The notes beneath the pieces are model-generated. The model made no database searches. It had not been told where the DNA came from and was given only the letters and a program-made list of their open reading frames with translations. A stretch of DNA of 64,000 nt from a virus. Positions 1 through 57,493 of this stretch are shown here, piece by piece (the first letter of the stretch is position 1; the number at the start of each line of letters is the position of its first letter). The stretch spans positions 22,044-86,043 of the IMG/VR virus record IMGVR_UViG_3300036770_004917; one strand, given 5' to 3'. Both the position numbers and the translations under genes were made by a program.

Positions 1-2355
1 ATCGTCGGCCTCCATTTTCAGGAGGTTTGCCAATGTGGGCAATCCGTCTGCATCAAGAGAGTTAATATCATCATTTGGCACAATGCCGGAACGGAGACTG
101 CGCGGGAATGACTGTCCCAAAAGGTCACGTGGATTGAAGGGCTTAATTCCTTGTCGTTTATTTCTCTCGGCAATAGCACCTTCAAATCGCGTATCTGGGT
201 TTCCGCCGATTCCCGCCCTGCTGCCTTCGTTGATAATGTCATCAAGTTCTTTGTCTGACATCTCTTCGAAGTTGATACCTAGTAGTCGCTTGACATCCAT
301 TGGGAGGTCATCTGCACGGCTGGCCCCTTGGCCTGTTGCGCCCGGACCTGTGAATGAACGAGCCGAACGAGTCGATGGCACCCTCTGGGCATCTTCGAGG
401 TTTGCCCCATCAAAATACGATTCGCCAGTATCGTCAGGGAATTTGGCATCAGTCAAATTTGCATCAGTAAAGTCGCTATCGGAAATTCGTGATTCCGTGA
501 AATCAACATTCTCCAGATTTGCTCTAATAAATTGTGTCCCCGTAAAAGATGAACGGCCAAAGCCTGCCCCTGCCAGGTTGGCATTTGTGAGGTCTGCTTC
601 GTTAAAACTTGCACCACTCACACCTTGGCCCGAGGTCTCTGATAGATTTGCTCCCGTCAGATTTGCCCTATTGAACCAAGTATTTGAGATATTGGCTCGG
701 TTGAGATTTGCTCCACTCAGATTGGCCTCAGTGAAAGTTGCACCATTAATATTCGTGCCTGACAAATCAGCATCCGTCAAGTTTGCCTTATTGAAATTTG
801 CAAAATCAAATGTTGCTTCTCTTAGGTCCGCCCCACGAAGGTTGGCCCCAGTAAATGATGCATCGTAGAGATTTGCTCCAGTGAAGTCAACAGATACGAG
901 TTCCGAATCTGACATGTCGGCACTATCAAGGTTGGCGTTTTTGAAATTTAGACCAGTCAATCGCATTCCGGACATATCTGCGCCACTGAGGTCTCGGTCA
1001 CCTTGAAGTTCTTCGAGAATCTGCTCTTCCGTTGGTGCTGCGCCCTTCCATTTTGTTGATTCCAGGCGAGAAGAACGCAGGCTGACTGATTCGCGCCTAC
1101 GTTGGTCGCGGCTTCTTAGTGTCTTGTCTGGGGCATGCTTACCACCACGCTCGTATTTGAAACCCTGCTTTTTGATGTCGTTAAGAATGCGCCCAAGGAA
1201 GTCGGGGTTCGACTCCAACTCCCGAACCCAGTTGTCGTCTACATCTTTATAGGTATAGGTTCGGCCGCCATTAAAGGTAACAATTAGTTCCTTGGCATCA
1301 TCGTCCCATGAGATTTTTTCAACAGCACGCGAACCCTCGGTGTTGATTTGAGTTTTTCCACCCTTGCCAACCCTGCTTGCACCAGCGCGACGTGCGTTCA
1401 TTATCGCCCCTCTGGCACGGGCTGGGTCGAGTGGGTTGCGGCTTGCAGTAGCGCCACTCGGTACGAATCTTGAAAGCCTTGATGAATCGTCCCCAAGAAG
1501 CACCTGAATCTGCTCACTCACGGCAGAAACGTCACTATCGGTCAGTCGACCTGCACGACGCAATTTTTCATTTTCTTCGGAACTTCCCTCAAGGAGTGAA
1601 GAAATTTTTCTGCCAAGATTTTCGGGAACCGTAAAACGTGGGATGATGGGACGCTCTAGGGGCGTGCTCTCGAATACGATTCCATCTTTGTCGGCGTCAA
1701 TTCGGCCAGTTACGTCAATGAACACCAAACCGGCTGGGGCGGCACGAAGTCCACCACCAAGGCGGCTTCCGAGACGCTGGCCCAATTTTTTGACCTCAAT
1801 AAGACCACCAGTAATATCTCTATTTTTGATGAGAGACTTATGGGCGACATCGTTCATGCCAACAACCCGCTGTGCTCCCCTGGAGATTGTGGCATCAACC
1901 TTCGCTTGCATGTGTCGCGAGGAAATACCGTCAATACGCGAACGTACTAAGCCTGTTTTGGGATTAAAACCAATTGCTCCGCTGCGCAGCATGGCTGCGA
2001 ATGAATAGGAGCCAGAGTCCGATTTAAATGCTAGCGCCTTGAAAGATACGGCATTTTGTCGGCCACCCAAACCAAATGCGCGTAATTGAAAGTCGCGAGC
2101 AGATGGGGTAACGGACCACGCATTAGTGCGATGCGACTCAACGTAGGAGCGCTTTCCTGGAGTAAATGATGCTCCACTAATAACTGCATCAAGCAGGCCC
2201 TTGACAAATGTGGGGCTATCATTTCGCAGGGCTGTTGGTGTTGACTGGATGATTCCAGAAGGTAGAACTTGCTCTAGCGATTTATGTTCCTGAGAGTTTG
2301 CCCAATTCGCCCACTCCTCCGCCTTTCGGTGTGCTCCGTGGGCGGAAAACGTCAT
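1..2355 (-). CDS. Giant multi-domain head-operon protein, partial (3' end runs off the window); shared N-terminal module, KTSC-like domain, pentapeptide repeats
   Basis: Absent from the ORF track because it has no stop in the window. Manual translation from ATG 2355 (AAGGA upstream) is open to base 1: MTFSAHGAHRK...IEVKKLGQRLGSRLGGGLRAAPAGLVFIDVTGRIDADKDGIVFESTPLERPIIPRF...VEKISWDDDAKELIVTFNGGRTYTYKDV (KTSC-like, ~1200-1340)...ANLRGADLREATFDFANFNKANLTDADLSG (pentapeptide repeats, ~385-995). Confidence 0.85.
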   Translation of the reverse strand, partial: MTFSAHGAHRKAEEWANWANSQEHKSLEQVLPSGIIQSTPTALRNDSPTFVKGLLDAVISGASFTPGKRSYVESHRTNAWSVTPSARDFQLRAFGLGGRQNAVSFKALAFKSDSGSYSFAAMLRSGAIGFNPKTGLVRSRIDGISSRHMQAKVDATISRGAQRVVGMNDVAHKSLIKNRDITGGLIEVKKLGQRLGSRLGGGLRAAPAGLVFIDVTGRIDADKDGIVFESTPLERPIIPRFTVPENLGRKISSLLEGSSEENEKLRRAGRLTDSDVSAVSEQIQVLLGDDSSRLSRFVPSGATASRNPLDPARARGAIMNARRAGASRVGKGGKTQINTEGSRAVEKISWDDDAKELIVTFNGGRTYTYKDVDDNWVRELESNPDFLGRILNDIKKQGFKYERGGKHAPDKTLRSRDQRRRESVSLRSSRLESTKWKGAAPTEEQILEELQGDRDLSGADMSGMRLTGLNFKNANLDSADMSDSELVSVDFTGANLYDASFTGANLRGADLREATFDFANFNKANLTDADLSGTNINGATFTEANLSGANLNRANISNTWFNRANLTGANLSETSGQGVSGASFNEADLTNANLAGAGFGRSSFTGTQFIRANLENVDFTESRISDSDFTDANLTDAKFPDDTGESYFDGANLEDAQRVPSTRSARSFTGPGATGQGASRADDLPMDVKRLLGINFEEMSDKELDDIINEGSRAGIGGNPDTRFEGAIAERNKRQGIKPFNPRDLLGQSFPRSLRSGIVPNDDINSLDADGLPTLANLLKMEADD

Positions 2356-2420
2356 TCCGTCCTTGACGACAATTCCATAGGTAGAATTATCGCTTGCGTC
2401 CGTCAGGATGACATATTGCT

Positions 2421-4457
2421 TCACTTGTTACCTCCAAGAATTGCGACCAGAATGTCTTGTTGCCGCTCGAGAGTGTCCAGCCGTTGCTTTGAAATTGCTG
2501 AAATAATGTCGAGGTGCGATGTTTCTGCTTCGCTAAGACGCCCATCTCTTTGTAGGCGTTGTTTATAGTTTACAAAGTTGAATGCTCGCGCCCGTGTAAG
2601 TAATCGTTTAATTTCTTCCAAAAATATACGGCGCTGCTGCGCCTTCAACTCTTTGAAGTACTGTCCGTATACCCCAGTATTGGAGAGGCTGCCCATCTCG
2701 GCGACGGCATTTTTTTGTCTATCTACAATACTAATTTTTGACAATTCAGTTAATTCTGATGCAAGGTCAGACGTAACTGGAGTATTTTCGTCAGCATTTT
2801 TAAAGACATCAATTGTTGCTGGATTCCTGTTATTGGTTCCATTAACAAAGTCGGACACGAGTAGCGCCGCCATCTTTTTTGGCGATGCTTCGTTCAGGAG
2901 TACGTCCTTGTTGGCGTCACGACCCTGGAAAACATTCTGAACCGAGTCAACGATATACGGAGAGCGTTTTCCGCTGCGAATCTGATAAACATCCGGTGAC
3001 TCAACTCCAAGGTGTTGCTGGAAGTCTGAGGCAAATGAATCATCCAGGTGACTGAAGTCGGAGCGACCCTGCCGCAGCAAATAGGATTTGCCATTAGCAC
3101 CAACTAGTCGTTCAAGTCCATTGCCTAGATTGCGTCGCTTAAAGGTGTTGTTTTCCGACAAGACTTGCTGAAGTATCTCGGGCGCAATCTTGGCTAGCGA
3201 ACCACCGGCTGCGATATGAGTAAGCGCCTCTGATATTGAAGTAATTTTGTCTGATATTTCCGCGACTGATGAACTGTCTCGCGATTCAAGGAGTTCCGTT
3301 GTTGGTTTCTTTGACAGTAGTTCTTTGACCCAGCGTTCTGTTTGGCGTCCATTTTTTTCACGAATCAATTCGTGTGGGCGGACGATTCCTACGAATTTTT
3401 CAGAGTACTTAATGCCATCACCAGTTTCCTCAACCACCTTCTGAAGCCGTGCGGATGGGTTGGTGCTGTTGTCTATTGATGCCGCCATATTGACTGTACG
3501 GCCCAGTTTGCGGCGTTCGCCAACGGTGAGTGGCCGTACCTTTTCTAGGCTTATTACTGAACCGCCAGGAAGAACCCAGGACACATTTGTCACGCCAGTA
3601 TTGGACAGTAACCCGAGTTCATCCTGACCGATGGATGGAACATCATTGATGCGCAGCAGATACGTTGCGCCCTCCATGTCTCTGTTGTCGGGAATTGCCC
3701 TCAATATCTTGGGACTTACCACTGGTTCAAGAACAAATCCATCGCGCCTCACTAGGCGTGCTGCATTGATATCTGGTGCGCCCATCTCCCTGGCTAGGCG
3801 CTCCACTTCGGCGAGTCGGGCAATGGGATTTGCATCAGAAACTCTTGGAATCTGTGGTCTGCGGGAATCGATGATTGAGTCGCCATACTCACCAGCGCCG
3901 AGGGGATTGCCCTCTAGTGACTGGGCGATGGCCCGCTCTCCACGCCTGACCGCCCGCGCAATTGCGGCGATTGCACGCCCCAGTGGTCCGGGGAGGTCAA
4001 ACAACTTCTGACCACACGTAGATAGTTCATTATCAGTGAAGCGCCCACCGTACTGATACCCTTCTGGGCACCGTGCCGTCCTATCTCGGGTGCTCATTCT
4101 GCCACGGCCGCCACCAGGAAGCCCTGGGGTCAGTGCGGTGAAGATTCCGGAACGAACTGGGCTCCTGAGTGGTGAAATATCACCCGGCAGCGCATATGAG
4201 CCCGCTGCTTGTAGTGTTTGGCCAATTCGGCCAGTAGAACCAATGAGGCCAACACGCTTTACGTTGTAAGAGTCACGCAGCCCACCAACATGGCAGAGGG
4301 CCTTGAATGAAACAACATTGGGGGTTGACGCTGCGGAGCCGTAAAAAATAGAACCTGCAGCCAAGGATTTCGAATTGTGGTCCAATATGACACGACGAAC
4401 GAGAACCTGGCTATTAGGGCAGCACTTGCTCGGCTTTGTCATGTCAATTGTCTTCAT
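2421..4457 (-). CDS. Head-operon protein with RCP-x-G motif and a C-terminal degenerate HipA/PI3-4-kinase-like domain
   Basis: ATG 4457 overlaps the upstream TGA (ATGA). Contains RCPEGYQYGGRFTDNELSTC. The segment GKSYLLR...ASDFQQHLGVESPDV...LLVSDFVNGTNNRNPATI resembles the D-x-x-x-G-N-x-D-R-H-x-x-N kinase motif with catalytic substitutions. Confidence 0.6.
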   Translation of the reverse strand: MKTIDMTKPSKCCPNSQVLVRRVILDHNSKSLAAGSIFYGSAASTPNVVSFKALCHVGGLRDSYNVKRVGLIGSTGRIGQTLQAAGSYALPGDISPLRSPVRSGIFTALTPGLPGGGRGRMSTRDRTARCPEGYQYGGRFTDNELSTCGQKLFDLPGPLGRAIAAIARAVRRGERAIAQSLEGNPLGAGEYGDSIIDSRRPQIPRVSDANPIARLAEVERLAREMGAPDINAARLVRRDGFVLEPVVSPKILRAIPDNRDMEGATYLLRINDVPSIGQDELGLLSNTGVTNVSWVLPGGSVISLEKVRPLTVGERRKLGRTVNMAASIDNSTNPSARLQKVVEETGDGIKYSEKFVGIVRPHELIREKNGRQTERWVKELLSKKPTTELLESRDSSSVAEISDKITSISEALTHIAAGGSLAKIAPEILQQVLSENNTFKRRNLGNGLERLVGANGKSYLLRQGRSDFSHLDDSFASDFQQHLGVESPDVYQIRSGKRSPYIVDSVQNVFQGRDANKDVLLNEASPKKMAALLVSDFVNGTNNRNPATIDVFKNADENTPVTSDLASELTELSKISIVDRQKNAVAEMGSLSNTGVYGQYFKELKAQQRRIFLEEIKRLLTRARAFNFVNYKQRLQRDGRLSEAETSHLDIISAISKQRLDTLERQQDILVAILGGNK

Positions 4458-5089
4458 TTGTCGCATCCACAGTCTTCATCAAAAGGTGCATCCATGACGA
4501 TGCTTTTGCCCATCATGTCATCGCCTTCAATTTCCCAGTTGGCGTCATCGCGCAGGTACTTGCAGAACTCCATTTCCATGTCGGCAAAATCTCGCAGAAC
4601 CAGAAATGCATGCTTTATGTCATCCTGTGTCACAACGTAGTTTTCCTCAACGTCCATCATGTCTTGTTTGATATTGAGGAATTCTGAGAAATAAAAGTCT
4701 TCGCTGAGCGACTTCTTGCCACCGAAGCGAGAATTCATTCGTTTTTTCCAGTCGGCATCTGACCAAATTGAGCCATTGACGACATTCTTCAGTTTACGAC
4801 GACAGTTCTTCATGCCGGGGTGATGACAGCCCTCATTCGGCCACAAACCAGTAGTTTCGTGATGGAGCCAAGCGCAGATATTATTCAGTGGGTACAACTC
4901 TGGGTGGTCGGCAAGAATGACCTTGCAGCGTCTAAATCCACCAGGCTTGCGCATAATTGGACGCCAGTATCGTAGTAGGCGTTCGAGGTTTCCGCGACGT
5001 GGGCCTCGGCCCTTAAGGATGTCTCCGGTAATTCGTTCTTGCGGTAAGTCTAGAATTACGTCCTGTGGCGCCTTGTAGTTGTACTTCAT
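4454..5089 (-). CDS. Phage head-region protein (LRYW...PGGFxRC...CAxLH...TGxWP motif)
   Basis: 211-aa ORF. The Cys/His motif resembles a module I recall from actinophage head regions; function unknown. Confidence 0.6.
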   Translation of the reverse strand: MKYNYKAPQDVILDLPQERITGDILKGRGPRRGNLERLLRYWRPIMRKPGGFRRCKVILADHPELYPLNNICAWLHHETTGLWPNEGCHHPGMKNCRRKLKNVVNGSIWSDADWKKRMNSRFGGKKSLSEDFYFSEFLNIKQDMMDVEENYVVTQDDIKHAFLVLRDFADMEMEFCKYLRDDANWEIEGDDMMGKSIVMDAPFDEDCGCDK

Positions 5090-5100
5090 TATTTCCTACT

Positions 5101-5442
5101 TTAATCCTGAATGTTTTGGAACATGGTTTTTAGAATCAACTTACCATTGGATGTTTCCCAGAATAGGCCATGTACAGATGGCGGCAGTCGTAAAACATTA
5201 TACTGCAAATAAATGTAGGGAATGAGGTCCCCCTCGAATAGTCGTAGAGACCCATTTGTCATAAGTGATTCTGTGTCGTCGTACGTCATTCGTCTATCTG
5301 CGTATGGGTCTTGTCCTGTTAGTAACTTTCGCACAAATCCAACACATTGGTCAGCGGTATATTTTGAAGTTCCTAATTGTGGGCCGGAATCTCCAAAAAA
5401 ATCATTTATTTGTTTTTTGTATTTTTCATCAGTCATTTTCAT
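5101..5442 (-). CDS. Hypothetical protein, translationally coupled to the 1084-aa zincin protein
   Basis: 113-aa ORF with an ATGA overlap with the upstream stop. Confidence 0.6.
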   Translation of the reverse strand: MKMTDEKYKKQINDFFGDSGPQLGTSKYTADQCVGFVRKLLTGQDPYADRRMTYDDTESLMTNGSLRLFEGDLIPYIYLQYNVLRLPPSVHGLFWETSNGKLILKTMFQNIQD

Positions 5443-8400
5443 GGATTGAAAGCCTCACTCATTCTGTCTGATGGCAACCGACCAGAGAAGACCCACTGCA
5501 TCAATTTATTAAGCACCTGAAGTTCTTCGTTGGTGAGTTCCCGCGTAATGAGGCCGGAATCAGCAATCTGCGAGAATGGTATGCCCATAAAGTCGGCGAC
5601 AGCGGACTCGGCTACAAATTCACCAATTGACCATTTTGTACTGCCCAGCCATGTGGTTGGGTCCGTCAGGGTCGCCTGGTACGACGAATATCCCTGTGCT
5701 GGAAGTGAACTAAGTCCAGTGCCCCCTGCGCTGGATTGGACCCCAGCCGGAAGACCTATCTTTCTGGCAATATCATTTATTATTTTAATTTCTGATTGAT
5801 TTAGTGGCGACAGTTCAGTTCTTCCCGTTTTGGGCATAATTTCAAAATTTTCCCATAAACGGCTTGACATAGTGCCTGAATTAATTGCATTAGCAACTGC
5901 AGATAAACTGTCATCTATTCCTGTAAACAATTTTTCGAGAACATCATCAATGGGCATTTCCATAAATTCTGAAAGTGAAATGTCGCCAAAACTACTCGGT
6001 AGGTCAACGGCATCGGGCTCGGAACGGCTCGACATTGCCTGTTCAATATTTTGAACTCCCATTTGTAGTTGTTTTTCTGTTTCGCGGACGAGTGACGAGA
6101 CCCCAATCAGTGCATCAATTAGTGGCTTAACATCTTCCGGTCGCCCACCGCCCATAACGTTTCCATCATCTCCCTTGATGTCGGGGAAACCAAGAGTTGA
6201 CAAAACAATCGCAGGCGATACCTTTCCTAGGGTTAGGCTGTCACTGCCATCTGATTCAAACATTCTGATTCCGCGCATTATGTTGCGGCGAGCACTTTGT
6301 TCTCTTTTTTGAATTGCTGGATTGATGAGAAGTGATGCAATAGCGGGCGTTATTGAGTCACCTGCCTTGAATTCAAGAATACTGTCCAGTCCGAGTATTC
6401 CAGATACTTCAGGAATGCTTGCCTGCATTTTATTTAGCAAATCCGCCATATAGCCGTTCAATGCAACGGGTTTGTCACCCATGAAAATTGGTTGACCAAG
6501 CCACGACTCCATTTGTTGAATAAATTGTTCAACCATTTCGGCTTTTGCCTGTTTTACCAAATCATCAAAATTGCTTTTGCCAATAGAATCTGGATTCTTG
6601 GCCATAAAACCCGCGACACTAAATGGCCCAATTGCCCCCATTGCCCGAGCAGCGTCATATCTACCGACTCCTGGCGGCTGCATCTTTATTATTTCTATTG
6701 CTGATGTGATAGTTGATGTTAGGCCAACCAAAGACTCTGATGTTCCGTTTAACTTTTGAAAATCAGGAATCAATCTCCCTGCTGTACCTCCTGTAGTCAG
6801 CATGAGAATGTCGCGCCTCAGTAGTTCAGGGCTATTTTGTGCGTATTCTCGTATTTCGTCCTTGAAAACATCTGTATAAAATGCCTCGATAGGTAGTTGC
6901 TTCTGCAACTCCTTAAATGTTTCTGGAGTAAGTCCTGCCTCTTTTTGCCTGTCTATATACCTTTGAAGGTATTCGTCGCGAAGTTTTTGTGCTTTTTTGC
7001 GATTACTTTCCAATATTCTCAGGAAATGCAAACCATGTGCCGACTCGTGAACTCCAACCAACTTGGAGTTCACTGTCAGCCATTTGTCCAGTAGTTCTTC
7101 GCCATTGGCGAGATGCATTTTTAGTCCTGGAGAGTTAAGAGAGTTTTGGTACGCCTCTCTTGTTTTGCGTAGCGATTTCAGAATATCCGCAATACTGCCT
7201 TGCTGAATTGCTCTTAATGTTCGTGAAACAAGTAGGTCTTTATCAAATGAAGAGTCAACTTGTGCGATTGCATCAGCGGAATTGTTGACCACATTCCATA
7301 TTGTCTGCAGCAAATCCTGTCCAAGTGCCGAAGATGGAACTTGTGATTCCGCTCCGATTAAATTATTCCCCTGAAGTAGTTGGTTTATGATTTCAGACAT
7401 CGACGCAATTCCAGGTTCAATATCCAATCCATATTTGTATTGGAGCGCGTTCATTATTTTTGACTTATCCGGCATTTCATTCAAGTCATCTCTTAGTGCT
7501 TTGCTTATGGCATATGAAAGTGCAGTAAAGTTGCGCTTATCTTGCTTCATCAGTAGTCCGAGAAGGTATATACGTGAATTTTGCTTATCTGTTTCAGCCG
7601 AATAACCAATAGTCATTAATGGTTTTCTATTTTTTTTGGGTAGCAAGCGCGGTCCCTCATCGCTGAACTTTTGACTAAACTCCCAATCTTTTGCCCCCAG
7701 CGGAACAGACGTATAGCCACCTGCCCCTTGGGCGGCGATACGTGGGTCCATTGACCTCAGTCTCCACGTAACCTCGTTCCTACTGGCATCATCGCCAAAC
7801 ATCAATAAAAACTGATTAATATATGCCAGTTCCCATGGTTTCAAAGAATCACTATCCGCTTTTGAATCCAAGAATTCAATACTTGAGCGAGCCTTGTCGT
7901 TTGGACTTAGTCCGAAAGATGGGATGAGTCTTTTCAGAATATCCATTGCATCTTTGCGTGTCTTTATTTTTTTGCCGTCGTTATGACGGCGTGAAACAAT
8001 CCCGGCGACGTCATCTATCGCACTTAGCATTTCTTCGCGCGTAGCGGAACGGTCTGCTGCCTTATCGGCTCGCCTGGTGGTAATGCTCCTCAGGCTCGTA
8101 TTTGTAGAACTATCCGGCAGAAAATCAAACCCTGGTATGAATGGGCGCATTGTTGGTAGTCCATCATCCACAAAACCATCACCGTCACCATCTACTGATG
8201 GTTTTCCGCTCAGAAGTGGTCCGAGAGCCTTGAATCCGACAATACCCCTCATGTTAAAAACTGATTTCCGTGAAAGAACTGTCTTCTCCATCGGAAGCGA
8301 ACCAGTTGAAGCAATTTTTCTGCGGAACTCATCGGCACGAATTCTGTAGTCTTTTCTTTTGACTTCTTCCTCACCCAAACTCGTGATTATCTTTGCGCCA

Positions 8401-8693
8401 ACGAGCAAATCATCACCTATCGGCTGTGTTTTTTTGAGAAATATTCTGTTCCACTTGTCTCGTTCTTCTGGGGATGAGCCAGGAGACCATAGAAACTTAT
8501 GAAATTTAGAAAACTTAAGTTCTTGTATTGTCGGCGTTGTAGTAATGAAATGGAAAAACTTAACAAAATCAATTTGTCCATCCGGGGAAACGACGGCGCC
8601 ATCAAGCATCTGCTCACCATATGGCCGCAGAAGGTAATAGACCTTATTCCCTTCGTATGCCCCAACGAGAATGGCTTTTGTTTTTACAGCCAT
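5439..8693 (-). CDS. Large head-operon protein with DGDGDG motif and zincin-like metallopeptidase (HESAH)
   Basis: 1084 aa with an AAGGAG RBS. Contains FKALG...DGDGDGFVDDGLPTMRP (~8133-8192), VGVHESAHGLH (~7030-7055) and a distal GEFVAE (~5610). Confidence 0.75.
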   Translation of the reverse strand: MAVKTKAILVGAYEGNKVYYLLRPYGEQMLDGAVVSPDGQIDFVKFFHFITTTPTIQELKFSKFHKFLWSPGSSPEERDKWNRIFLKKTQPIGDDLLVGAKIITSLGEEEVKRKDYRIRADEFRRKIASTGSLPMEKTVLSRKSVFNMRGIVGFKALGPLLSGKPSVDGDGDGFVDDGLPTMRPFIPGFDFLPDSSTNTSLRSITTRRADKAADRSATREEMLSAIDDVAGIVSRRHNDGKKIKTRKDAMDILKRLIPSFGLSPNDKARSSIEFLDSKADSDSLKPWELAYINQFLLMFGDDASRNEVTWRLRSMDPRIAAQGAGGYTSVPLGAKDWEFSQKFSDEGPRLLPKKNRKPLMTIGYSAETDKQNSRIYLLGLLMKQDKRNFTALSYAISKALRDDLNEMPDKSKIMNALQYKYGLDIEPGIASMSEIINQLLQGNNLIGAESQVPSSALGQDLLQTIWNVVNNSADAIAQVDSSFDKDLLVSRTLRAIQQGSIADILKSLRKTREAYQNSLNSPGLKMHLANGEELLDKWLTVNSKLVGVHESAHGLHFLRILESNRKKAQKLRDEYLQRYIDRQKEAGLTPETFKELQKQLPIEAFYTDVFKDEIREYAQNSPELLRRDILMLTTGGTAGRLIPDFQKLNGTSESLVGLTSTITSAIEIIKMQPPGVGRYDAARAMGAIGPFSVAGFMAKNPDSIGKSNFDDLVKQAKAEMVEQFIQQMESWLGQPIFMGDKPVALNGYMADLLNKMQASIPEVSGILGLDSILEFKAGDSITPAIASLLINPAIQKREQSARRNIMRGIRMFESDGSDSLTLGKVSPAIVLSTLGFPDIKGDDGNVMGGGRPEDVKPLIDALIGVSSLVRETEKQLQMGVQNIEQAMSSRSEPDAVDLPSSFGDISLSEFMEMPIDDVLEKLFTGIDDSLSAVANAINSGTMSSRLWENFEIMPKTGRTELSPLNQSEIKIINDIARKIGLPAGVQSSAGGTGLSSLPAQGYSSYQATLTDPTTWLGSTKWSIGEFVAESAVADFMGIPFSQIADSGLITRELTNEELQVLNKLMQWVFSGRLPSDRMSEAFNP

Positions 8694-11600
8694 GGCGTCT
8701 CCTTGTGCGCGGTCATTGGTGGTGATAGTAGGTCGGCAAAGATGAGTCCATCCTCTGTGTAAGCAGACTTGGCGCCACGACCGGTTGACGGCTTTCCGAA
8801 TAGGCGCTTAGCAAGTTTCCGGAGAAATGCAGCCTGCGACTTACTGATGTAGCCTTCACTGAGGGCATAATCAATGACCCATCCAGAGGAATCATTCCGT
8901 AATGTTTTGCGTAGTTGAGATAATACACCAGCAGTTCCATTTTTCTTGAATGCACCACTCAGGTCTCTAGTTAGTTGTTCACCATCAATCTGCTTGCCGA
9001 TTCCTCGTGCTATGTCGGACGTAAAGCGCGTCCCCGTGCGTTGCGTTTGACGACTACTTCGGGTGCTTGTCAATTCTCGTGTGTCCGGACGGGCGATTCG
9101 CTTTGCGGCTGCAATGTTTGCGTTGCGGCCACGGCGTCTTTCATCTGACATCGCAACAAGTCGGTCAATGGTTTCTGAGAAAGTCTGTTCTTCAATTCTG
9201 GAAACACTGTCAAGCATCTCCCTAATGGAGGCACGTTTTTCATCAGACATATCCGACCACGCCCGTGGCGTCGGCATATCGAACGTGAGGAGTGCGTCGA
9301 GTGCTTCTTCTGAGCCAAGTTCGTTGATTATCTGGGAACGAATTTCGTCCTGCTGCCTTCTTACGCTGGCAACAGCATCTGATGCAATTTGTTCCATTTC
9401 TTTCTGCTGGGCCTTTGTTGCACCACGCAGGATTCCTTCTGCTAGTGCCCGATTTCCATCATCTTCGATTTCCCCATCTGGTCCGGCAGATGGGCGTGGG
9501 TCAATCCCTAGTTCGGCCATGGCCGGATAGTCATCAGAAAATGCCCTTGGTTCTCGCGATGAGCGTGTTGAGGCAACCTCACTACGTGCAACGCCGAAAA
9601 TGTCCTGTGTAGTACGTGGGCGTTCGCGAGTAATGAATCCACTGGTCCTGCGTCCACCCCTAGTACGCGCATAGGCGCCATCTGGAATATAGGCACCACT
9701 ATCTCGGACCTCTTGATAGTTGGCGTCCAGGTCATCGTCAGTTTTCCTAACGAAGTCGTCAAATTCATCCTTGGACATGTCTGGAACAGAGTCATCTTTG
9801 ACATAATCGTCTTCCAGTCCCAACTTGGCTTCCTTGATGCCAACCTGATTCTGGTACGACTTGGCAAGATTTAGGGCATCAAAAATACCAACATCTATCT
9901 CCTGGGTATTGATGGTTAGTTTTTCGCCCTCTGGTAAATCCTGGTTAAACATGTGAACTGCCGCCCATCGGTGGTGGCCATCAACAACATATCCATCGTT
10001 GGAGGTGATGATTGCTCCCTTGGCCCACCATGCTTCGGCAAACTTGGGCTTACCCTTATCCATCACTTGATTGCCGTTTTCGTCAAGGACCGGAACCTGC
10101 CCGTCGTATTTGCCGTCGAGCCATTCTTGCCGCAGTTTGAAGAATTCCTTACTACCGCGCTTGATGCCCTTGCTTTCGGACCACTTCAGGAAGGCGGAAT
10201 AGGATTCATCAATGCCATTGAGCATTCCGCTGACTTTTTCTGCCTGAATTTCAGACTGCGATGCGGTGTAATCGTCAGGGCTCACACCATTCTTGGTGGT
10301 GACAATATCCTCGCGTCCGGCCTTGCGCCTTAGATGGTCCATGAAGTTTGGAACAAAATCAACTTCAGTATCTTTCCAATTTACAAGGTCGTAGAATTCT
10401 TTGCGCTCATCTTCGGTCAGGGGGCCCTGGCCTTCCGGGTATTCTCCCTTTGGATTCGGATGACGCTTCTTTAGTTCGTCAAATCTCTCACGCTGTTCTG
10501 GCGTCAGGTCCTCACGCGCCTCCCACGAAGTCTTTACGAGGCCTGCTTTAGCGGCTCGTGCCCCAACAGTATCGTCACCTTTCAGGCGACCACTGATTTG
10601 TGGCATTCTCATGCGCTTGGTGCCAATGTTCTTACCGCAGAAGATATTGCTATTTGGAACGTACATTCTGCATGCATCAATTTTGTACATTGCTTTTTCT
10701 TCTTCAGATAGGTCATTGCGCAATTTCAAATATGAATCAATTTCTTTTTGGAAGTTTTTTATTCCCTTTTTGAGTTGTTTCGCTTTTGCATTATCACCAA
10801 GTTCAACGTTGTATCCCAGCGCCATAAGTGCAACCGCTGACTCTGGTGTCTCCGCTTTATATACTGGCTGTCCATCCGTAATGCCAGTTTTCCCCTCAAC
10901 CCTAGATAGGCCAAGAGTTTTGAGTTCATCTTCACCCATTTCGTGAAGTGCTCCGCGCTTATTCTGTTCAATGCGCTGAATCTCATCAAATCGCTTTTGC
11001 GCTGCAGTCGTTGGGACCGCCTCTGCTTGTGGCGATGTCCCTGCTTTTTCTGTCACTCTAGCCTTTGTGGCCTCGCGCCTGTTTTCGCCGACAGCCTCAC
11101 GTGCGGTGCGGGAACTTCGCGTCGACCGTGGGGTGGCCCCTCTGTCCTGACCACTTATCTTTTGGACATAACCGAAACCTTCCTTTTGTTCGTATAGGTC
11201 CTTATATATGTCCCTTGACATGCGTTGCGCCAACGGTATTCCATCTGCGTCTTCTTCAAAAAGTGCATCAATATGCGATTTCTTTGCGTCCATGTCCATG
11301 GAACCAGCACCATCAACGCGCTCAAACATTCGTTCTTTGCCAAGTACGGCAGCCTTAATCCCCCAATGCTCCTGATAGGCCTTGCCGATTGCAAGTGCGT
11401 CTTGGATTGGGGCATCAATGACCACTGATTTGAGTTTAAGTTTGGCCCGTTCATCCTGCCCGTGGTTGTAGGCAATAAACGATGCCCATCTGTGGTGGCC
11501 GTCAACGACATATCCATCGGATGTTGAGATTATGGAGCCATTCGTAAACCAGGGCTGGGAGATAATCCCCTGCGTACCGCCCTCTCCGATTGGGTCTCCA

Positions 11601-14600
11601 TCACTATTGAGTTTACGACCCTCCCCATCAATTAGGGGCACCGCAAATGCACTTCCATCGGGCTTTGGTTTTCCGTACAACCACCTATCGCGCATGTCGT
11701 AATATTCATCGCTACCATATTCAATTTCTGGGTGAATATCTGCCATGTATGCCTTGAAGGAATGGTCATGGTTTTTCATACTTGTAACCATTCCGCCAGT
11801 CTTGGACATTTGAATTTGCCCTTGCGAAACAGCGAGACTCTCTGGGTCTATCCCATCCTGGTCGTAGATTACTTCATCTGGATTTTTGTCAGGGTTTACC
11901 TTGGCGGACAGTCTCTTGACATACTGCTTGAACTCTTCGGTGAGGTTTGCCTCAGTATCGTTCCAGTCGACCATGGAATAAAACTCTTCCATCTCGCCAT
12001 CTTCGAACGTGCTAGGACTTACGGTGCCATCTTTATTTAACTTGGCATGTTTTGCCTTTAGTTCATCAAACCGAGTTTTTTCTTCTGGAGTCAACTTGGT
12101 TAGATTGCCATCGGCATCGCGTCTTCCGGCTTTCCAATCAACCTTAACAACGCCAGCCTTTGCAGCACGTGCCGCTGCCGTATCTTCGCTTCGCATGCGC
12201 CCAGCAATTTGGGGCATATCTGCGCGCAAGGTGCCAAGTCCGCCTTCGCACCAAAGATTTGTTCCACCTGCATATAGTCGGCATGTATCAATAACGGCGG
12301 TCAGGTCCCTGTTTTCCGACTTGAGGAATTCGTCTAATTCTTTTTGAAGTTTTGCCGATGCTTGCACCAGTAGTGTGGGGGATGGGGCATCGGGGCCGAG
12401 TTCGACGTGATAACCAGCAGCAATTAGGGCAGCGGCAGTCTCAAGGTCATTGGCAACGAACACTTCCTGGCCATCAATGAGGGCCATATTGCCAGAACGC
12501 TCAACCCCAAACTTTTCAAACAATTCGTCATCATCTAGTTGATGGAGGCCACCATTGTTTTCGGGCTTACCTAATCCAGATACGTCTTTATAAATATCTG
12601 CTATTTTTCGCTTTGCGGGCGGTGTTGTTGATGTATTTCCAGACGTGCCACGAACTTCTCTTGGTGAAGATGCCGACCGAGTACTTATTGAATCGGGGTC
12701 AGACACCGAACGTGAAACACGTGACTCAATGTCACTCGCAGTAGTTGAACGTGTCGTCGTTCTTGCTGAACGAAGACCTTCACTCCTTAGTCTTGCTTTT
12801 TCCGCATCGGATAGTTCCCTTGCATGAGCATTCGCATCCGGCATTCTTTCTGATGTTCTGGCTACGCTAGCAATATGGTTGACTGCTTCCGAAATTAGAA
12901 TTGGGTTACTGGAGCCGTCACTGTCGTCCTTGAATGTCTCTTCAAGCACTCTCACCAACTCGGGCGAGAACCCTGTGTATCTTTCCGTTCCTCGTCCTGC
13001 CTCGTTGCCCTTCCATGTAACAATGAGTTCGTTGGTGGAGTCATCATAAGTAATTTTTTCAATTAGTTTGGAGCGTCGTACATCGATTTGCGTTCTTTGA
13101 CCCTTGCCCACGCGACTGAGCCCTGATGCACTTGTAGTCCTGCCCTTTTCTACTTCCCTATTAATTAAATCGACCGTCTTGGGGTTGACGGGCTTGACAT
13201 CAATTTGCTGACCCGACCCTGTGTCTGGCGTGTCGGTTGTGCTTACTGTTGGGAAAACATCCGAATCTGAACTCAATGTTGTTAATCGGCCATTGGTGTA
13301 GTAGTCGTTGCGGCGCTTGAGTGATTCGGGAGTATAGATAGACTTCCCACTTACGTCTCGTGGATTTGGCTCATTTCGTGCTGAGAATCTCCTGGTACTC
13401 GCGCCATGCGCGTCGTATCTGAGGCGCTGAAATAGTTTTTCCTCGGGCGATGAATTTTGGTCAATGTGGGACAGATTTGTGAATGAATCAATATCACTAA
13501 TATCAAATCCATCAGGATTACCGAAAATTAGTGGTGGTTCACCACCACGAGACTTATGGTCTGCTTGTGCTTTTCTTGCCGCAAGAACAAGACGCATTCT
13601 ATTGAATGGGGCAATAAGGTGTTGTGCCTCTTTGGGCACCTTGTCCATATCTCCGGTCAAAAGTGCGTCCAGAATTTCATCAAGGTCATTGTCAATAAAA
13701 CTTTGTCGCAATACATTCTTTAATCTATCGCGTCCACCTATTTCATCAGCGTCTATTTTGTAATTATTTAACTCAAGTGAGTCAACCTTAATTGCCTCAA
13801 TGTCACTGGTACGAATTCCTCCACCAATTACCGCTTCGGCAGACGGTCCAGATGAAGTACTGCGTGATGAGCGAGTAGACGTTGATGGGGTGCCAAATGC
13901 CGCGTAGGTGCCACTGGCGACACTGTCGAGAATTCCTATTGTCTCACGCATGTTGTCAATTTCTGAATTACCAGAATCCGGCCCAGAAACATGAGCAGCA
14001 AGAACTTCAGACCTATTGGTTGAGAGCATTGGTGTTGCTTGGCGAGCCCCATCCATGATGTCGCCCTTGGTGTAGGCGGTTCGTCGTGCAGTTTCTGGCA
14101 CCATTATTAGTTCAACTGTCTTACCGCCAGATTTGAATTCCGCGTGCTGACTAAATTCTGGTCCCTCGGAGAAAAATCTTGCACTGCGCGCCATGCCGTC
14201 AGGTGGCAAACTGTCTAGATAGTCTTGAATTTCTTTTTGGCTCATCGCATGTACGAGGTAACCAAATTGTGAGCGTAGATTATCTGGCGTTGAGTCCGAC
14301 AAGCCGTTATCGCTTTCAAAGGATTTTTGCAGCGAAGCAGCGAGACTTCCAGGCTTATTGTCAAAAATATTCCCAAGAACACCATCACTCAATAAGCCAC
14401 CAAGTTGTTCTGGGGTTATGGCGACTCGTGGGCGGTCATCAAATGCCTCGTGGTATTTGAAAACGGCTTCTTCTACTGTCTTTGTCAGTTCGTCGGCAGT
14501 TGATGAGAATATGAGTTGTTTTGTTTGGTCGGAAATTTCATTGAATAGATTCCAGAAGTCTTCATTTTCCACACCGCCATCACGAACTTTCTCAAGTTCA

Positions 14601-17600
14601 TCCCGCAACTTTGAAATTTCTGCCGCTTTTGCTGCGCGCGTCTTGTCGGCCGTGACCATTCTTCCAATTCGACCACTGTTATCGACTGGCTGAAGGAGTG
14701 AGCCAGCGTCAGTATTTGTTGACTCGGTGCCAAAGAATGAACTTCCCGATTCCCGGAATGCGGCGCCAACCGACGAAGAGCGGGTCGTCTGGAGTAATCT
14801 TGCTGACGCGTCGCCACTTGCTCCGCGGGTTGTGCGCTGCGGGATTTCGGTTTTGCCTATCTCGGTATCCAGTAAGCGCTTTAGGGCACGCTTTTCGGAA
14901 TCCGCCAAAGAACCGCGCTCTGCTTCCACTGAATCAATTGAATCAGCAAGGTCGCCAAGAACTTCAGACTTTGTCTTTTGGCGACTTGGCATCAAAACAA
15001 CAGTTCCATCAGTATCAACCTTCATGACCTCAAGGGTTCCTGGTGGAATGAGGATTCCGTCAGTGTCTCCATCATGGCCATTTTTGGTATGCATTGCACG
15101 CGTTCCCGCAGGCATCGTAACCATAACTCGCTTAGCAGTTGTTGGGTCTGCAAACTTGAGACCATCAGCAGACTGTCCGTCTATCAGTAGACCGCGAATT
15201 GGTCCACTGTGGTCAATTTTTGCACCAGGGGTTAAGTCTCCATCAAGTTCCATTGCGGCAACAAATGACATATCAGTATCTGTTGTTGAGAGTTCCAGTA
15301 TGTCCAGAGTTGGTATGACCGTATCGCGAAGTTGATTTTCTAACAGTTCGTCCTGGCTCTTTGGGTCTGGTGTGCTCATTGTCCCAGCACCATCGCGCAA
15401 ACGCTGGCGCGCCCTTGCTGATGTATCTATGGCGCTACGGAGGCTCTCAGTATCGCCGCTTACCGCATCACTTACAGTTAGCCACGCAGGCCTCATTTCC
15501 ACTGGCTCATCAGACTCAATGACGTCTTTTTGCTCAGCGTTTAGTTTTTCTATTATTTCATCAATCTTGCGGCGACCAACAAGCGCAGGGTCGGACCTAA
15601 GTGTTGCGCTTTCAATTTCTTCTTGTGTTGGCTTGTAGTTGGGATTGAGTTTCCGCTTTTCCTTCGATGTCATGCCAGGAGTGTCACGAATACTTCCTGG
15701 CTCATAGGGGCGTGAGGTGGCATCAAATCCATCCCTACCACCTACGGCATCCCCCGCATGGTTGGCTATTTCTCGTGACCAGTGGGCCAACTCGTCGTCA
15801 TCAACTTCAACTATGTCGTCATAGCCGCGCGACTTCCTCTTATTGATGGCACTATTGCGAAGTCCCTTTTGCTTTGGCCGCAATGCTGAATCAACGCGAC
15901 GCATATATTTTCCAGGTTGTGGATTAATGCCGCGTGCTTTGTACTTCTCAACCTCCTCGTCGCTAAGTTTGGACTTCCTAGTGTTCACGTCAAGAATCTG
16001 ACGCATGCCCTTAATAGCGAGCCACATGCGGGCCTGCTCATCCGCCGTTAGCGGTTCAGTTTTGGATTTTTCAATAAGTTTCCTGTATTCGCTTTCAAGT
16101 TTTTCGTAACGAGCATCCATTTGCTCTGGAGTCATTTTCCAGTAGGCGTCTTTGGCTTGCCTTATTTCACCAAGTGGGTCATTGGGGTCTGGCCCACCCT
16201 CTTCTGGGCCTAGGCCAAATGCAACATCTACGAAACGACTGATTTCATCGGGGTTTTGTTCAATGGGGAGGTTATGAATACTCTCTGGTTGCCACTGAGT
16301 TTCATCATCAAAGTACATATGGCCCGCAAGGTCCATCCAGCGAAGGTCAACCTGTCTTGGTTTTGCCGCGCCTGCTTCTGGCGCCTCGCCACCCTGTACT
16401 CCATCTCCATAGTTGTTATTAATAACAATATTTATTGGAGCATGAATGTTTACATTTATAACCGTTCCACCATTTCCTGGCGGAGCGGTTGGTGGCCCGG
16501 TATTTGTTGGTACGTCCGGCACTGGCGGTGAGTCTGGCGTAGGGGGAACTAAATCAACTTCTGGAGGAACATCATATGGGATATCTCTGACTTTTTTGGT
16601 ATTGATATTTTCGGGCAAAAACCACGCAATAGAATCATCAACCTCGGGTCCGCCCAGGATTCCAAGTTCACGCTGAGCAAAAACTTCAGCCGTTCCTTCA
16701 ACCAACGCCCGTTGCAATGCCTGGCTAACATCCCCGCCTTCCCGGGCTGCTTTCTCCGCATCAGCCAGTTCACTCTGATATCGTTTTCCGGCGAAAATGT
16801 TAACTAATGATTTCTCAAATCGATGCGCTCCACCTGGTGGGAATTGATACCTATTATCTCCCCTAAACATTAGACTAGAAACAGCCTCGGCCCACTGCTT
16901 ATTTGTCCAGGTTGATGGTGGTTCAATAAAATCAACCAATCCATTTGGCGTATCTATAGTAAACTTTCCGTTTTTTTCGTATATGTCAATGATATTTTGC
17001 TGCACGGCATGGTATTGCATAACATGACCAAACTCGTGAAAAGCAACATGTCGTGCTTTTCCGCGCACTGGGTCAAGCCCAAGTGCTGCTTGTAGGCGTG
17101 CTGCACTGGTGTCATTTGCGTATCCATCAGCGCCAACGATTTCGGCATATAGCATTGCGTCGCTAATATCCTCTAAAGCACTTAGTAATAGTGCTCGTTT
17201 TTGTGCTTCACTGGCAGCGCCTGGAGCATCTATAAATATTGAACCATCATCAGTAATTTTGAACGTGTCTTCATCTACCGCTGCCGCATGCAATGCCATT
17301 CCAAGAGCATTAAATGACATCGGTACTTTGATATCGCCATACTCATCATATTGCGCCACAGTTGAGCCCTCGACTCCAAGGAATTCCTCGTTTGGCGTAA
17401 GGTCGTATGGCATCAAGGCGCGAAGTTCGCCAACTCTTTCTGTTGCATCTGGATATTTGTCTTGCAGGTAGACGTACGATTTGAGAAATTCACGCTGTGC
17501 GGCGTGATGTCTTTCGCGAATTGCCTGAACATACTTTTGGGCTACTTCACGCTCTTTTGGGTCACTGCTTGTCAGGAATGGCTTTACTTCATCCGGGATA

Positions 17601-18813: not shown

Positions 18814-20382
18814 TTACTTGTCGTCGCCGACTTCTGTTTGCAGAAGTTCAAACTCCACGAGGCTCTTAAGGAACTCTCCTTCAGAGTCACCATCAACAGA
18901 GATACTCTTTTCGCCCGCAGCCCATTCTGCTGGAATCAGTTTTTCCATACCGAGTTCCATTGCGCGCTTCATGATGTGACGCTTGGCAGCAGGAATATCT
19001 TTCGCTCTGCCGTGAGCCATAATTGCGTTGCGTAGGTCAGCCTCTCCGGAGATTGGGAAAGAGCCGTCTTCCATTGCTTCACCAGACTCAGCCATTTGCT
19101 GGCGTGTCTCTTCGGAGAAGGCGCGCTTGAGTGAAATTTCTGCAGCCTCGGCCTCAATCTCATCAACATCGTCCGGCTCCCACTTGTCCCACCCGAGAAC
19201 CTCGCCATCCAGGGCAACGTAAACGTCATAGGACTTGCTGTCAAAACCGTCCACTTCCACCTGATAAGCATCAAAGCCCTCAAACACGCTGGGCTCAACC
19301 GCCATGACGGTTCCAGGAACCGACTTAACGGCAATCTCAGCAGCCTCGTTGAAGTCGATGAGTTCAATGTCGTCCATAAGTGACTTCTGCTCAAAAATGC
19401 TGTCGTCAAGACGATGGAAACCAAGAACCTCTGCAGTTGTTCCGTCAATGAAAACTTCATTCACGTAGCCAGACTTGGTCTGAACGTCAACGACAAACAT
19501 GTCTGCTTCTGAGGAATAGCCAGAGTCAATTACATCGCCCTTGAACATTGTTTCAGCAAGACCCTCGACATGCAACAAGCCGGGCAGACCCTTCTCTGCA
19601 ACACAACCACCAGGGCAGTCATCGCAGACAGAGATAGAGCCAGGGTAAACCTTGCGCTCAATTGCGCACATAAACCCATTGAGTCCAATATCGGCTGACT
19701 TTGTACCGAGCGAACGGAGGCGCTTCAGGCGGGCTGCTTCAAGGTCTGGAGTCATTCCAGAAGCAGCAGGACGCATGGGCATTACATCGCCCATCTCATC
19801 TTCGTCTTCCTCATCCTCCATCATTTCCTCGTCTTCGTCACCCTCCATCATCTCTTCGTCCTCTTCCTTGTAGGACATCATGCGCTTGCCCCAGCGCATA
19901 CCCTTGGGGGTTGCCATTGGCTCCATGTCTTCTTCTTCGTCCATCATGTCGCCGTCAGCCTCGGGCATGGGCATGCGCATGCGCATACCACCCTTGCCGT
20001 TCGCATACATTTCTTCGTCCATCTCTTCGTCCATCATGGGCATACGCATGCGCATGCCACCCTTCTTCATGGGCTCAAGGTAATCGGATACTGCGGAATC
20101 CTCTTCGTCTTCCATATCAACATCCATGCTCATGCCCATTTCTTTCTTGGCACGACGCATCATGAGCATCTTCTTGTACTCCTCTTCGGACATCTCATCC
20201 TCGGGCAGTTCGGCAACTTCGTTAACGGGCACCATCTTGACCTCGACGGCCATTGCGCCACACTTTCCACATACCTTGGAGCCAGCCTTGTAGCCACACT
20301 CTCCACCTGCAAGGCCTTTGGCGCACTTAGCAACCGCACCATCACTGTCAATTTTTACGATTGCTTTTTGCTCATAACTCAT
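18814..20382 (-). CDS. Scaffold-like head protein: Cys clusters, acidic Met-rich linker, two PepSY-like domains, C-terminal DUF6582-like domain
   Basis: 522 aa with an AAGGAG RBS. IDFNEAAEIAVKSVPGTVMAVE...AYQVEV...YDVYVALDGEVLG matches the PepSY pattern. GSFPI...DLRNAI...GRAKD...KRHIMKRAMELG...LIPAEW resembles DUF6582. Confidence 0.6.
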   Translation of the reverse strand: MSYEQKAIVKIDSDGAVAKCAKGLAGGECGYKAGSKVCGKCGAMAVEVKMVPVNEVAELPEDEMSEEEYKKMLMMRRAKKEMGMSMDVDMEDEEDSAVSDYLEPMKKGGMRMRMPMMDEEMDEEMYANGKGGMRMRMPMPEADGDMMDEEEDMEPMATPKGMRWGKRMMSYKEEDEEMMEGDEDEEMMEDEEDEDEMGDVMPMRPAASGMTPDLEAARLKRLRSLGTKSADIGLNGFMCAIERKVYPGSISVCDDCPGGCVAEKGLPGLLHVEGLAETMFKGDVIDSGYSSEADMFVVDVQTKSGYVNEVFIDGTTAEVLGFHRLDDSIFEQKSLMDDIELIDFNEAAEIAVKSVPGTVMAVEPSVFEGFDAYQVEVDGFDSKSYDVYVALDGEVLGWDKWEPDDVDEIEAEAAEISLKRAFSEETRQQMAESGEAMEDGSFPISGEADLRNAIMAHGRAKDIPAAKRHIMKRAMELGMEKLIPAEWAAGEKSISVDGDSEGEFLKSLVEFELLQTEVGDDK

Positions 20383-30506: not shown

Positions 30507-30518
30507 TATTATTTTTTT
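30458..30518 (-). promoter_or_regulatory. Putative programmed -1 ribosomal frameshift signal (A AAA AAA plus downstream stem-loop)
   Basis: Minus strand reads GGT TCA AAA AAA TAA TAG; the -1 frame reads AAA AAA ATA ATA GTG CCC into the 3322-aa ORF. A GCCCGGCTT...GAGTTAGGGC hairpin can start 7 nt after the heptamer. Confidence 0.7.
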
Positions 30519-57465: not shown

Positions 57466-57493
57466 TAGTAGCCTTTATTGAGAGGTGGGGCCA

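Follow-up and report, generated by a model that had tools for sequence, protein, structure and literature searches.

A lineage-specific four-residue motif at the module joints of giant phage proteins: a candidate cleavage signal

We analysed a stretch of 64,000 nucleotides (hereafter the window), bases 22044-86043 of one virus contig of 86,043 bases (IMG/VR record IMGVR_UViG_3300036770_004917), from a phage that by its genes looks like a myovirus. The subject of this report is a four-residue motif, Ser-Thr-Arg-Ser (STRS, with the minor variant SLRS), that recurs in the giant proteins of this phage. Our results showed that the motif is shared by separately encoded proteins and confined to them, that it lies at module boundaries, that its positions are conserved in relatives in which the residues have changed in concert from lineage to lineage, and that in most relatives the S78-family head protease is fused to the first giant protein. 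Summing over the possible enzymes, we consider the motif to be probably a cleavage signal; that the enzyme is the S78 protease, cutting before the last, invariant Ser, we regard as an even chance.

The motif and its carriers

On the window's contig the carriers are four giant proteins, a 1084-aa protein and a tape-measure-like protein. The 3322-aa giant (P0004, 20538-30506, minus strand), whose gene lies directly downstream of the protease gene, has 12 STRS among 17 TRS; the T codons of its STRS start at 30068, 28844, 27515, 27488, 26564, 25688, 25679, 24668, 24128, 23363, 20981 and 20972, and variants are found at 24752 (GTRS), 22253 and 21623 (PTRS) and 27965 and 24485 (ITRS), all on the minus strand. 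The 3372-aa giant (P0001, 8684-18802, minus strand) has TRS at residues 1340, 1643, 2017, 2041, 2561, 3079 and 3247, that is, five STRS and two TTRS; the 4-mers span 14777-14788 (TTRS), 13868-13879, 12746-12757 (TTRS), 12674-12685, 11114-11125, 9560-9571 and 9056-9067 on the minus strand, the TRS codons ending in each case at the lower coordinate, and a GLRS lies at residue 2010 (12767-12778, minus strand). The third giant (P0006) is cut by the edge of the window, which holds its N-terminal 808 residues (1-2424, minus strand; hereafter the edge ORF); on the whole contig it is a protein of 3123 aa with 9 STRS. The edge ORF contains STRS within VPSTRSARS (364-375), directly after a block of pentapeptide repeats, SLRS within VSLRSSR (1072-1083), before the same block, SLRS within RSLRSG (88-99) and TLRS within TLRSR (1111-1122), the membership of the last being doubtful (all minus strand). 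The fourth giant, of 2763 aa, is encoded upstream of the window. In the 1084-aa protein (P0002, 5439-8693, minus strand) the only SLRS (residues 200-203, 8085-8096, minus strand) is part of TSLRSITTRR (residues 199-208), ~27 residues past a DGDGDG tag. The tape-measure-like protein (1469 aa, 57485-61894, plus strand), whose gene follows the sheath gene, has two STRS, at residue 43 (57611-57622) and residue 624 (59354-59365). The sites listed in an earlier note on this DNA, made from the letters alone, were all found on the minus strand where it had placed them.

The four giants (2763-3372 aa, 12,580 aa in total) have 5, 12, 9 and 9 STRS, with a composition expectation of 0.04-0.10 each. Pooled, these 35 copies compare with 0.41 on average, and never more than 4, in 2000 shuffles, and no STRS was found in the 49 further ORFs of 100 aa or more (12,907 aa) of the whole 86-kb contig. 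The wider form [SG][TMLF][RSA]S occurs 55 times in the proteins of at least 1000 aa (10.2 expected) and 4 times in 48 smaller proteins (5.7 expected), so the equal frequency in tail and replication proteins that the earlier note had named as speaking against its idea was not seen. Ser, Thr and Arg are abundant in the giants, a point in favour of chance, low-complexity composition or a DNA-level repeat as the source of the motif; the result of the shuffles and the positional conservation of the sites in relatives (see below) reduce this explanation to a negligible chance. The 47 TRS sites draw on every codon available for their residues, six for Ser (AGY plus TCN), four for Thr and six for Arg (CGN plus AGR). 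Since the codons at the sites are synonymously diverse, selection has acted on the peptide and not on the DNA, and a DNA-level repeat was ruled out by this diversity.

The residues around STRS showed a weak preference for Ala, Arg or Pro before it and for Ser or Ala after it, with Arg two residues after the motif at 15 of the 35 sites. The earlier note had also counted LRS as part of the linker. This proved right for SLRS, which occurs 7 times in the cargo proteins and once elsewhere, but not for LRS in general: LRS lacking the preceding Ser is at background level (12 in cargo and 8 in an equal amount of other protein), and relatives do not preserve the second LRS of the 1084-aa protein (residue 312). 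The idea that one rule is shared across separately encoded cargo genes is strongly supported at the sequence level by the presence of the same 4-mer in the four giants and the tape-measure-like protein, and of SLRS in the 1084-aa protein, and further by the relatives (see below). The expected confinement of the hits to head-operon cargo was borne out for the most part; the tape-measure-like protein, with its two sites, departs from it, as does a distant 3152-aa giant of a relative, with six.

Lineage versions of the motif in related contigs

Relatives were collected from IMG/VR, 7 loci through the 522-aa protein encoded between two of the giants and 80 more through the protease; altogether 125 relatives were detected, and the family is a large one, of at least 125 IMG/VR contigs. 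For each relative, the giant ORFs were then screened without bias for enriched 4-mers. A member of the same 4-mer family was among the top three enriched 4-mers in each of the 46 loci with a giant ORF of at least 1500 aa, although in two of them the 4-mer was read one residue out of register; many of the 46 are near-duplicates, and ~12 lineages are independent. Arranged by whole-protease identity to the window, the versions are STRS (at least 90%), SMRS (76%), SSRS (69%), GMSS, GMRS and GMTS (62-64%), GMRS (57-58% and again ~45%), GFSS (51-52%), GLAS (49-50%) and GFAS (43-49%). The general form is [S/G]-[T/M/F/L/S]-[R/A/S/T]-S, in which only the last Ser is invariant. Counted over whole contigs, there are 38 GMRS in G005 (0.15 expected), 35 GMSS, GMRS and GMAS taken together in G003, 15 SSRS in G004 and 12 SMRS in G002.

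In the alignment of orthologues of the 3322-aa protein, IPSTRSKRGKNR stands opposite PLSMRSRRGKNR, IASSRSKNRKNK and GGMSSKRKSNR; PASTRSGR stands opposite SASMRSSR and GGMSSSRK; and QSTRSTRSSVKEGRAE stands opposite ASMRSQKDGRAE and AGMRSRSGTEQDGRAE. The site in TSLRSITTRR of the 1084-aa protein, to which the earlier note had pointed, has counterparts as well, TSLRSI aligning with QSMRSI in G002 and GGMRSG in G003, so that SLRS falls opposite SMRS and GMRS. Judged from these alignments, the sites in the relatives are homologous. The carrier proteins of the relatives have switched in concert to another 4-mer at the aligned positions, which is the outcome expected if the motif has one common reader.

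One relative, G006, is a complete genome of 150,897 bases with direct terminal repeats, in which all 21 GFAS fall in 4 of the 171 ORFs. A 4898-aa giant fused to the protease carries 13 of them; a 3152-aa giant (93698-103156 of that genome), far from the head operon and with three HExxH, carries 6; a 1456-aa counterpart of the 1084-aa protein has one at residue 225; and a 1623-aa homologue of the tape-measure-like protein has one at residue 632. Five other related contigs are 26-71% complete by CheckV-type estimates, so the window's contig is likewise likely to be a fragment. Over its first ~500 residues the tape-measure-like protein shares 41% identity with the G006 homologue. Its site at residue 624 lies within a few alignment columns of a site at residue 604 in G003 (GMAS), and the GFAS at 632 of G006 lies in the same low-complexity region, ~80 columns off in an alignment that around this site is unreliable for G006 and G004. 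Conservation does not extend to the site at residue 43.

When the 10 motif states are placed on a tree of the protease domain, 9 changes, the fewest possible, account for them; the STRS of the window stands at the end of a series SSRS, SMRS, STRS that is nested within the GMRS clade. The third position of the motif is Ser, Arg or Ala within the single genome of G003. This variation suggests, as far as sequences can tell, a fairly broad rule: a small residue, then a hydrophobic one or Thr, then Arg, Ala or Ser, and then Ser. With a rule of this breadth, a conserved protease and a drifting motif would no longer be at odds.

The invariance of the last Ser alone is also what a motif that is never cut could show. 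In that case the 4-mer would be a linear motif at the joints that is bound or modified, by phosphorylation, glycosylation or ADP-ribosylation of Ser or through contact with DNA, a chaperone or the capsid interior. The flanks, rich in Ser, Thr, Arg and Gln and with the Arg two residues after the motif at 15 of 35 sites, agree with such a role, and the cleavage at STRS is itself a deduction. The replacement of three of the four residues at dozens of sites throughout a lineage, however, suits the pocket of an enzyme better; moreover, the placement of the sites between modules and behind N-terminal tags is that of propeptide sites, and Pfam detected no kinase or glycosyltransferase in the proteins scanned. 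We therefore regard an uncut motif as rather unlikely.

Module joints and the candidate enzymes

Next, we examined where the sites lie with respect to the modules of the giants. The NUDIX domain that Pfam found in the 3322-aa protein (residues 1445-1553) falls within a unit bounded by the sites at 1314 and 1606, and the pentapeptide block of the edge ORF (~residues 470-665) is bracketed by SLRS at 448 and STRS at 684. The 3372-aa protein has two units of ~520 aa (sites 2041 and 2561, with the next at 3079; 9569-12682, minus strand), each of which begins at STRS. They are paralogues produced by tandem duplication (36% identity, E 4e-84), and both contain DGYVVDGHHRW. The earlier note had called them ParB units; they are a genuine paralogous pair, but the name stays unconfirmed, ParB families being returned by a protein atlas only as weak leads (scores 0.79-0.87). 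Its further assignments of ART-like and DUF3626-like units in this protein found no backing either, since Pfam gave no significant family for eight segments (residues 1-2016 and 2041-3372), and KTSC, also placed there by the note, was found by Pfam only in the edge ORF (residues 365-407). A sequence search of the PDB with residues 2041-2560 and 700-1642 of the 3372-aa protein returned weak hits only, none of them relevant, and with PHROGs the giants matched only families of unknown function. The N-terminal ~1300-1700 residues of the 3372-aa protein are free of sites, and those of its four homologues likewise.

Residues 1880-2450 of the 3322-aa protein were modelled with AlphaFold, using 10 sequences (mean pLDDT 60.6). 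In the model, STRS 2126 sits in a loop of ten residues whose pLDDT is below 50, flanked by a beta and a helical domain, both at ~80; STRS 2381 lies in a low-confidence stretch preceding the next beta unit, and two further sites lie in the disordered N-terminal stretch. Together with the NUDIX domain of the 3322-aa protein, the KTSC and pentapeptide repeats of the edge ORF and the HExxH motifs described below, these separate beta and helical domains give the giants an architecture of the polyvalent type. For the majority of their modules Pfam returned no match. A location of the sites in unusually variable stretches was considered and rejected (mean smoothed identity of 0.242 at the sites and 0.222 at random positions, P=0.77). 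Cutting at every STRS would yield pieces of 3 to 1642 residues, mostly of 56-860.

Three of the giants have in common an N-terminal tag of ~50 residues, GLRAAPxGxxFxDVTGxxDADxDGIVFEGxPLERPIIPRF (~30300-30470 and ~1620-1800, minus strand, and ~residue 215 of the 2763-aa protein), which the 3372-aa giant, unlike the other three, lacks. The tag of the 1084-aa protein is shorter (DGDGDGF..GLPTMRPFIPGF, ~8120-8195, minus strand), and in the relatives with a fused protease the tag directly follows the protease.

The prohead serine protease (30509-31891, minus strand; Pfam PF04586, E 9.4e-14; PHROG 'head maturation protease') consists of an S78 domain (residues 18-171) followed by a C-terminal part of 285 residues, and has no STRS. 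Its gene stands directly upstream of that of the first giant. Of the 46 related loci, 36 have the protease fused in frame to that giant as its N-terminal domain, with the first motif often 466-580 residues from the start of the protease; in the other 10, the window's lineage included, it is a separate ORF ending in GGSKK. In the window the gene ends (30503-30525, minus strand) with GGT TCA AAA AAA TAA, whose A7 run overlaps the start of the 3322-aa gene, and the latter is open in the -1 frame through the A7 run, with no stops. Fusion of protease and giant would here need a -1 shift on the A7 run.

Our results are consistent with the following model. STRS, with its minor variant SLRS, would be a short linear cleavage signal of the giants and of the 1084-aa zincin-like and tape-measure-like proteins, and the giants would be polyproteins, which in three cases the N-terminal tag presumably takes into the procapsid. 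The S78 protease, of HK97/assemblin fold and in most relatives predicted to be translated as the N-terminal domain of the first polyprotein, would cut before the last Ser (STR↓S, GMR↓S, GFA↓S, the arrow marking the cut), and so would release ~40 pieces, each about the size of a domain (56-860 aa), which would be delivered into the host. Cutting, its position within the 4-mer, the enzyme and the packaging of the proteins are what we infer from these data. The position of the protease gene directly upstream of the first giant, and its fusion to it in 36 of 46 loci, argue for this model. In its favour, too, are the head-protease precedents of SPN3US and HK97 and the Ala-Ser of the distant lineages (see below). 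The full picture would be that of a ~150-kb uncultured myovirus family with a herpesvirus-like polyprotein strategy, in which S78 is the first domain or is fused by frameshift and a code drifting from GFAS to GMRS to SMRS to STRS cuts ~40 proteins, the tape measure included, under one rule for all proteins that leave the virion; we offer it tentatively, at somewhat less than an even chance.

Several observations weigh against the model. Among 47 sequences, the 180-residue S78 domain has no alignment column that follows the P1, P2 or P3 class of the motif, and the domain stays 74-100% identical while the motif goes from GFAS to STRS; it follows that either the specificity of the protease is broad or another enzyme reads the motif. 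The agreement between motif and protease tree does not help here, for such clustering is expected of any inherited trait and shows lineage specificity rather than co-evolution with the protease in particular. The shell proteins (portal, protease, 522-aa, 681-aa and capsid protein) have no STRS, and the likely junction of the capsid protein, x↓S[IV]G[DE]xF, keeps its Ser in 8 of 9 lineages but in the preceding residues ignores the cargo motif. A further difficulty is the motif of the tape-measure-like protein, a protein that one would not expect to find inside the prohead. Lastly, conservation in the 21 residues around each site is no lower than in the rest of the protein (P=0.77), and the joints are thus not simply sloppy linkers or drifting spacers.

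A second enzyme could be supplied by the cargo itself. Zincin-like HExxH motifs are present in the 1084-aa protein (HESAH at residue 549), in the 3372-aa protein (HEFGH at residue 589) and in the 2763-aa protein, and such a metallopeptidase could cut the sites either in the capsid or, after joint ejection of cargo and tape measure, in the host. The bond cut would then probably be the one preceding the hydrophobic second residue (S↓TRS, G↓MRS, G↓FAS); many zincins prefer a hydrophobic residue at P1'. Wherever a related contig encodes homologues of the 1084-aa and 3372-aa proteins (5 contigs, and G006), their HExxH is conserved. The motif carriers, giants and tape measure, are the proteins expected to leave the virion, and the motif-free shell proteins and a capsid junction that does not track the motif fit this enzyme too, as does the prediction by Iyer et al. 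2017 that zincin-like peptidases process polyvalent proteins (PMC5512222). Autoprocessing by such phage domains is, however, itself a prediction. Moreover, Pfam found no significant peptidase family in the zincin-like regions, a sub-threshold M3 match (E 0.01, residues 384-435) lying away from HEFGH, and the two site-richest giants, of 3322 and 3123 aa, have no HExxH, so that the cutting would have to be in trans. The fusion of S78 in 36 of 46 loci would also go unexplained, and we consider a zincin an unlikely reader of the motif, though a serious rival to S78.

Two facts, a motif common to cargo and tape-measure-like protein but absent from the shell proteins and an S78 domain with no covarying column, would also suit a host protease that cuts the ejected proteins after injection, in which case the motif would vary with the host. 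Protease domains that are 90-92% identical are nevertheless already associated with different motifs (STRS, SMRS and SSRS), and the specificity of the hosts would have to differ among close phage relatives. The S78 fusion is left unexplained here as well, and a host protease seems to us quite unlikely.

Known systems and the gene neighbourhood

The head protease of T4, gp21, acts on one short motif common to many head proteins. Head proteases are thus proven readers of short shared motifs in other phages; gp245 of SPN3US has 9 substrates with 14 sites in all, and favours Ser at P1' (PMC10052503). The phage studied here resembles this T4/phiKZ type (T4 gp21; SPN3US gp245, with the motif A-X-E) in that one short motif would serve many separately encoded proteins and that N-terminal targeting parts would be removed. 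In T4 and SPN3US, however, nearly all cuts are of this propeptide kind, and the enzymes belong to the gp21 family and cut after Glu. Here, the protease is S78, the motif [S/G]-x-x-S has no Glu, up to 12-15 sites lie along each ~3000-aa protein at module joints, the shell proteins are motif-free, and the cutting is putative. The system may work like gp21-type maturation but is not a member of it.

Iyer et al. 2017 described giant phage proteins made of unrelated modules, encoded in the head module and proposed to be injected, for which processing by zincin-like or assemblin-like peptidases was proposed (PMC5512222). We found no cleavage or linker motif named there, and the word linker occurs 0 times in the main text (PMC5512222). 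The giants of this phage are like those polyvalent proteins, being huge, of many modules and encoded between the protease and capsid genes, but differ from them in one respect: assemblin-like peptidases are placed C-terminally by Iyer et al. (PMC5512222), and S78 is N-terminal in 36 of the 46 loci. This arrangement, a protease of the same fold class N-terminal on its putative substrate (although a separate ORF in the window), is shared with the herpesvirus assemblin-scaffold pair. Assemblin of herpesviruses cleaves itself at the consensus (V/L)-x-A↓S, and the versions GFAS and GLAS of the distant lineages contain Ala-Ser too. The herpesvirus substrate is, however, a scaffold with two sites, in contrast with the thousands of residues of enzyme-like modules and dozens of sites found here, and in the window's lineage the motif has moved to STRS and the protease is a separate ORF. 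In HK97 the residue before the cut is Lys103. The mature HK97 capsid protein begins at Ser104 (PMC5701804), and this start, produced in gp4/gp5 by a protease of the S78 family, fits a cut before the invariant Ser; unlike the present phage, HK97 has no cargo polyproteins, and the putative capsid junction here lacks the cargo motif.

What sets the system apart from these described cases is a number and spacing of sites like those of a polyprotein, the N-terminal fusion of S78, the presence of the motif in the tape measure and its rewriting lineage by lineage. We found no description of the motif or of the family in the literature on head proteases, polyvalent proteins and ejection proteins, supplements and subscription journals lying outside the scope of the search. 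Should the sites be cut, the contig's four giant genes would encode ~40 separate proteins and not four, and the motif would mark exact module boundaries for expression and testing. It would then be the first explicit cleavage code for the polyvalent-protein hypothesis, Iyer et al. having proposed processing but, as far as we found, named no sites, and a code that can be rewritten in concert at dozens of sites between close relatives would make a tractable case of enzyme-substrate co-evolution. The fusion of protease and polyprotein in 36 of 46 loci links the head maturation of tailed phages with the protease-scaffold arrangement of herpesviruses, and the motif offers a simple annotation rule to split giant phage ORFs in metagenomes.

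The minus-strand head operon runs in the order portal, S78 protease, 3322-aa, 522-aa, 3372-aa, 1084-aa, 211-aa and 681-aa proteins and edge ORF. The portal gene (32000-34051, minus strand) was identified by Pfam PF04860 (E 3.6e-45) and its product is motif-free. The major capsid gene (G000:C1:4496-5803, minus strand) lies upstream of the window and encodes a protein of 435 aa that is 47% identical to the capsid protein of Gordonia phage Gray; ~47 kb, mostly of giant genes, separate it from the protease gene, and all four giant genes of the contig sit between the two. The 522-aa and 681-aa proteins had been considered as capsid protein and were rejected, the capsid gene being the one just given. 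Encoded between two giants (18814-20382, minus strand), the 522-aa protein has a Cys-rich N terminus with four Cys in ~30 residues, a long low-complexity middle part rich in Met, Asp and Glu whose length varies, and a C-terminal half that is well conserved; it had no match in Pfam or PHROG and may be scaffold-like. On the plus strand lie the terminase gene (34340-35644) and, ahead of the tape-measure-like gene, the tail sheath gene (54707-56227).

The nearest cultured phages are Bendigovirus (GMA6 and Gray) and Brevibacterium phage Cantare, whose portal and protease are 40-43% identical to those of the window. In GMA6, Gray and Cantare cargo genes of ordinary size stand in place of the giants; in Bendigovirus GMA6 and Gray these are separate genes, and neither phage shows enrichment of [S/G]-x-x-S. 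The sole recurring 4-mer in the two Gordonia phages is EIKS, with 3-4 copies in proteins of the head module, and three of Gray's copies and one of GMA6's are in the displayed N-terminal sequences of the major capsid protein. In the capsid protein of the window's contig, the N-terminal ~95 residues resemble a delta domain, with a conserved EIK[SG]LI, and the variable Ala-rich stretch ends at x↓S[IV]G[DE]xF. EIKS in GMA6 and Gray may be a Lys-Ser maturation signal separate from the cargo motif.

Other repeats were observed in smaller proteins of the relatives. Those below 1500 aa in G003 and G004 have strong GATG, GPTG and TGPT repeats, with up to 46 copies, which are probably collagen-like repeats of tail fibres, and smaller proteins of G000, G001 and G002 contain PGMP repeats.

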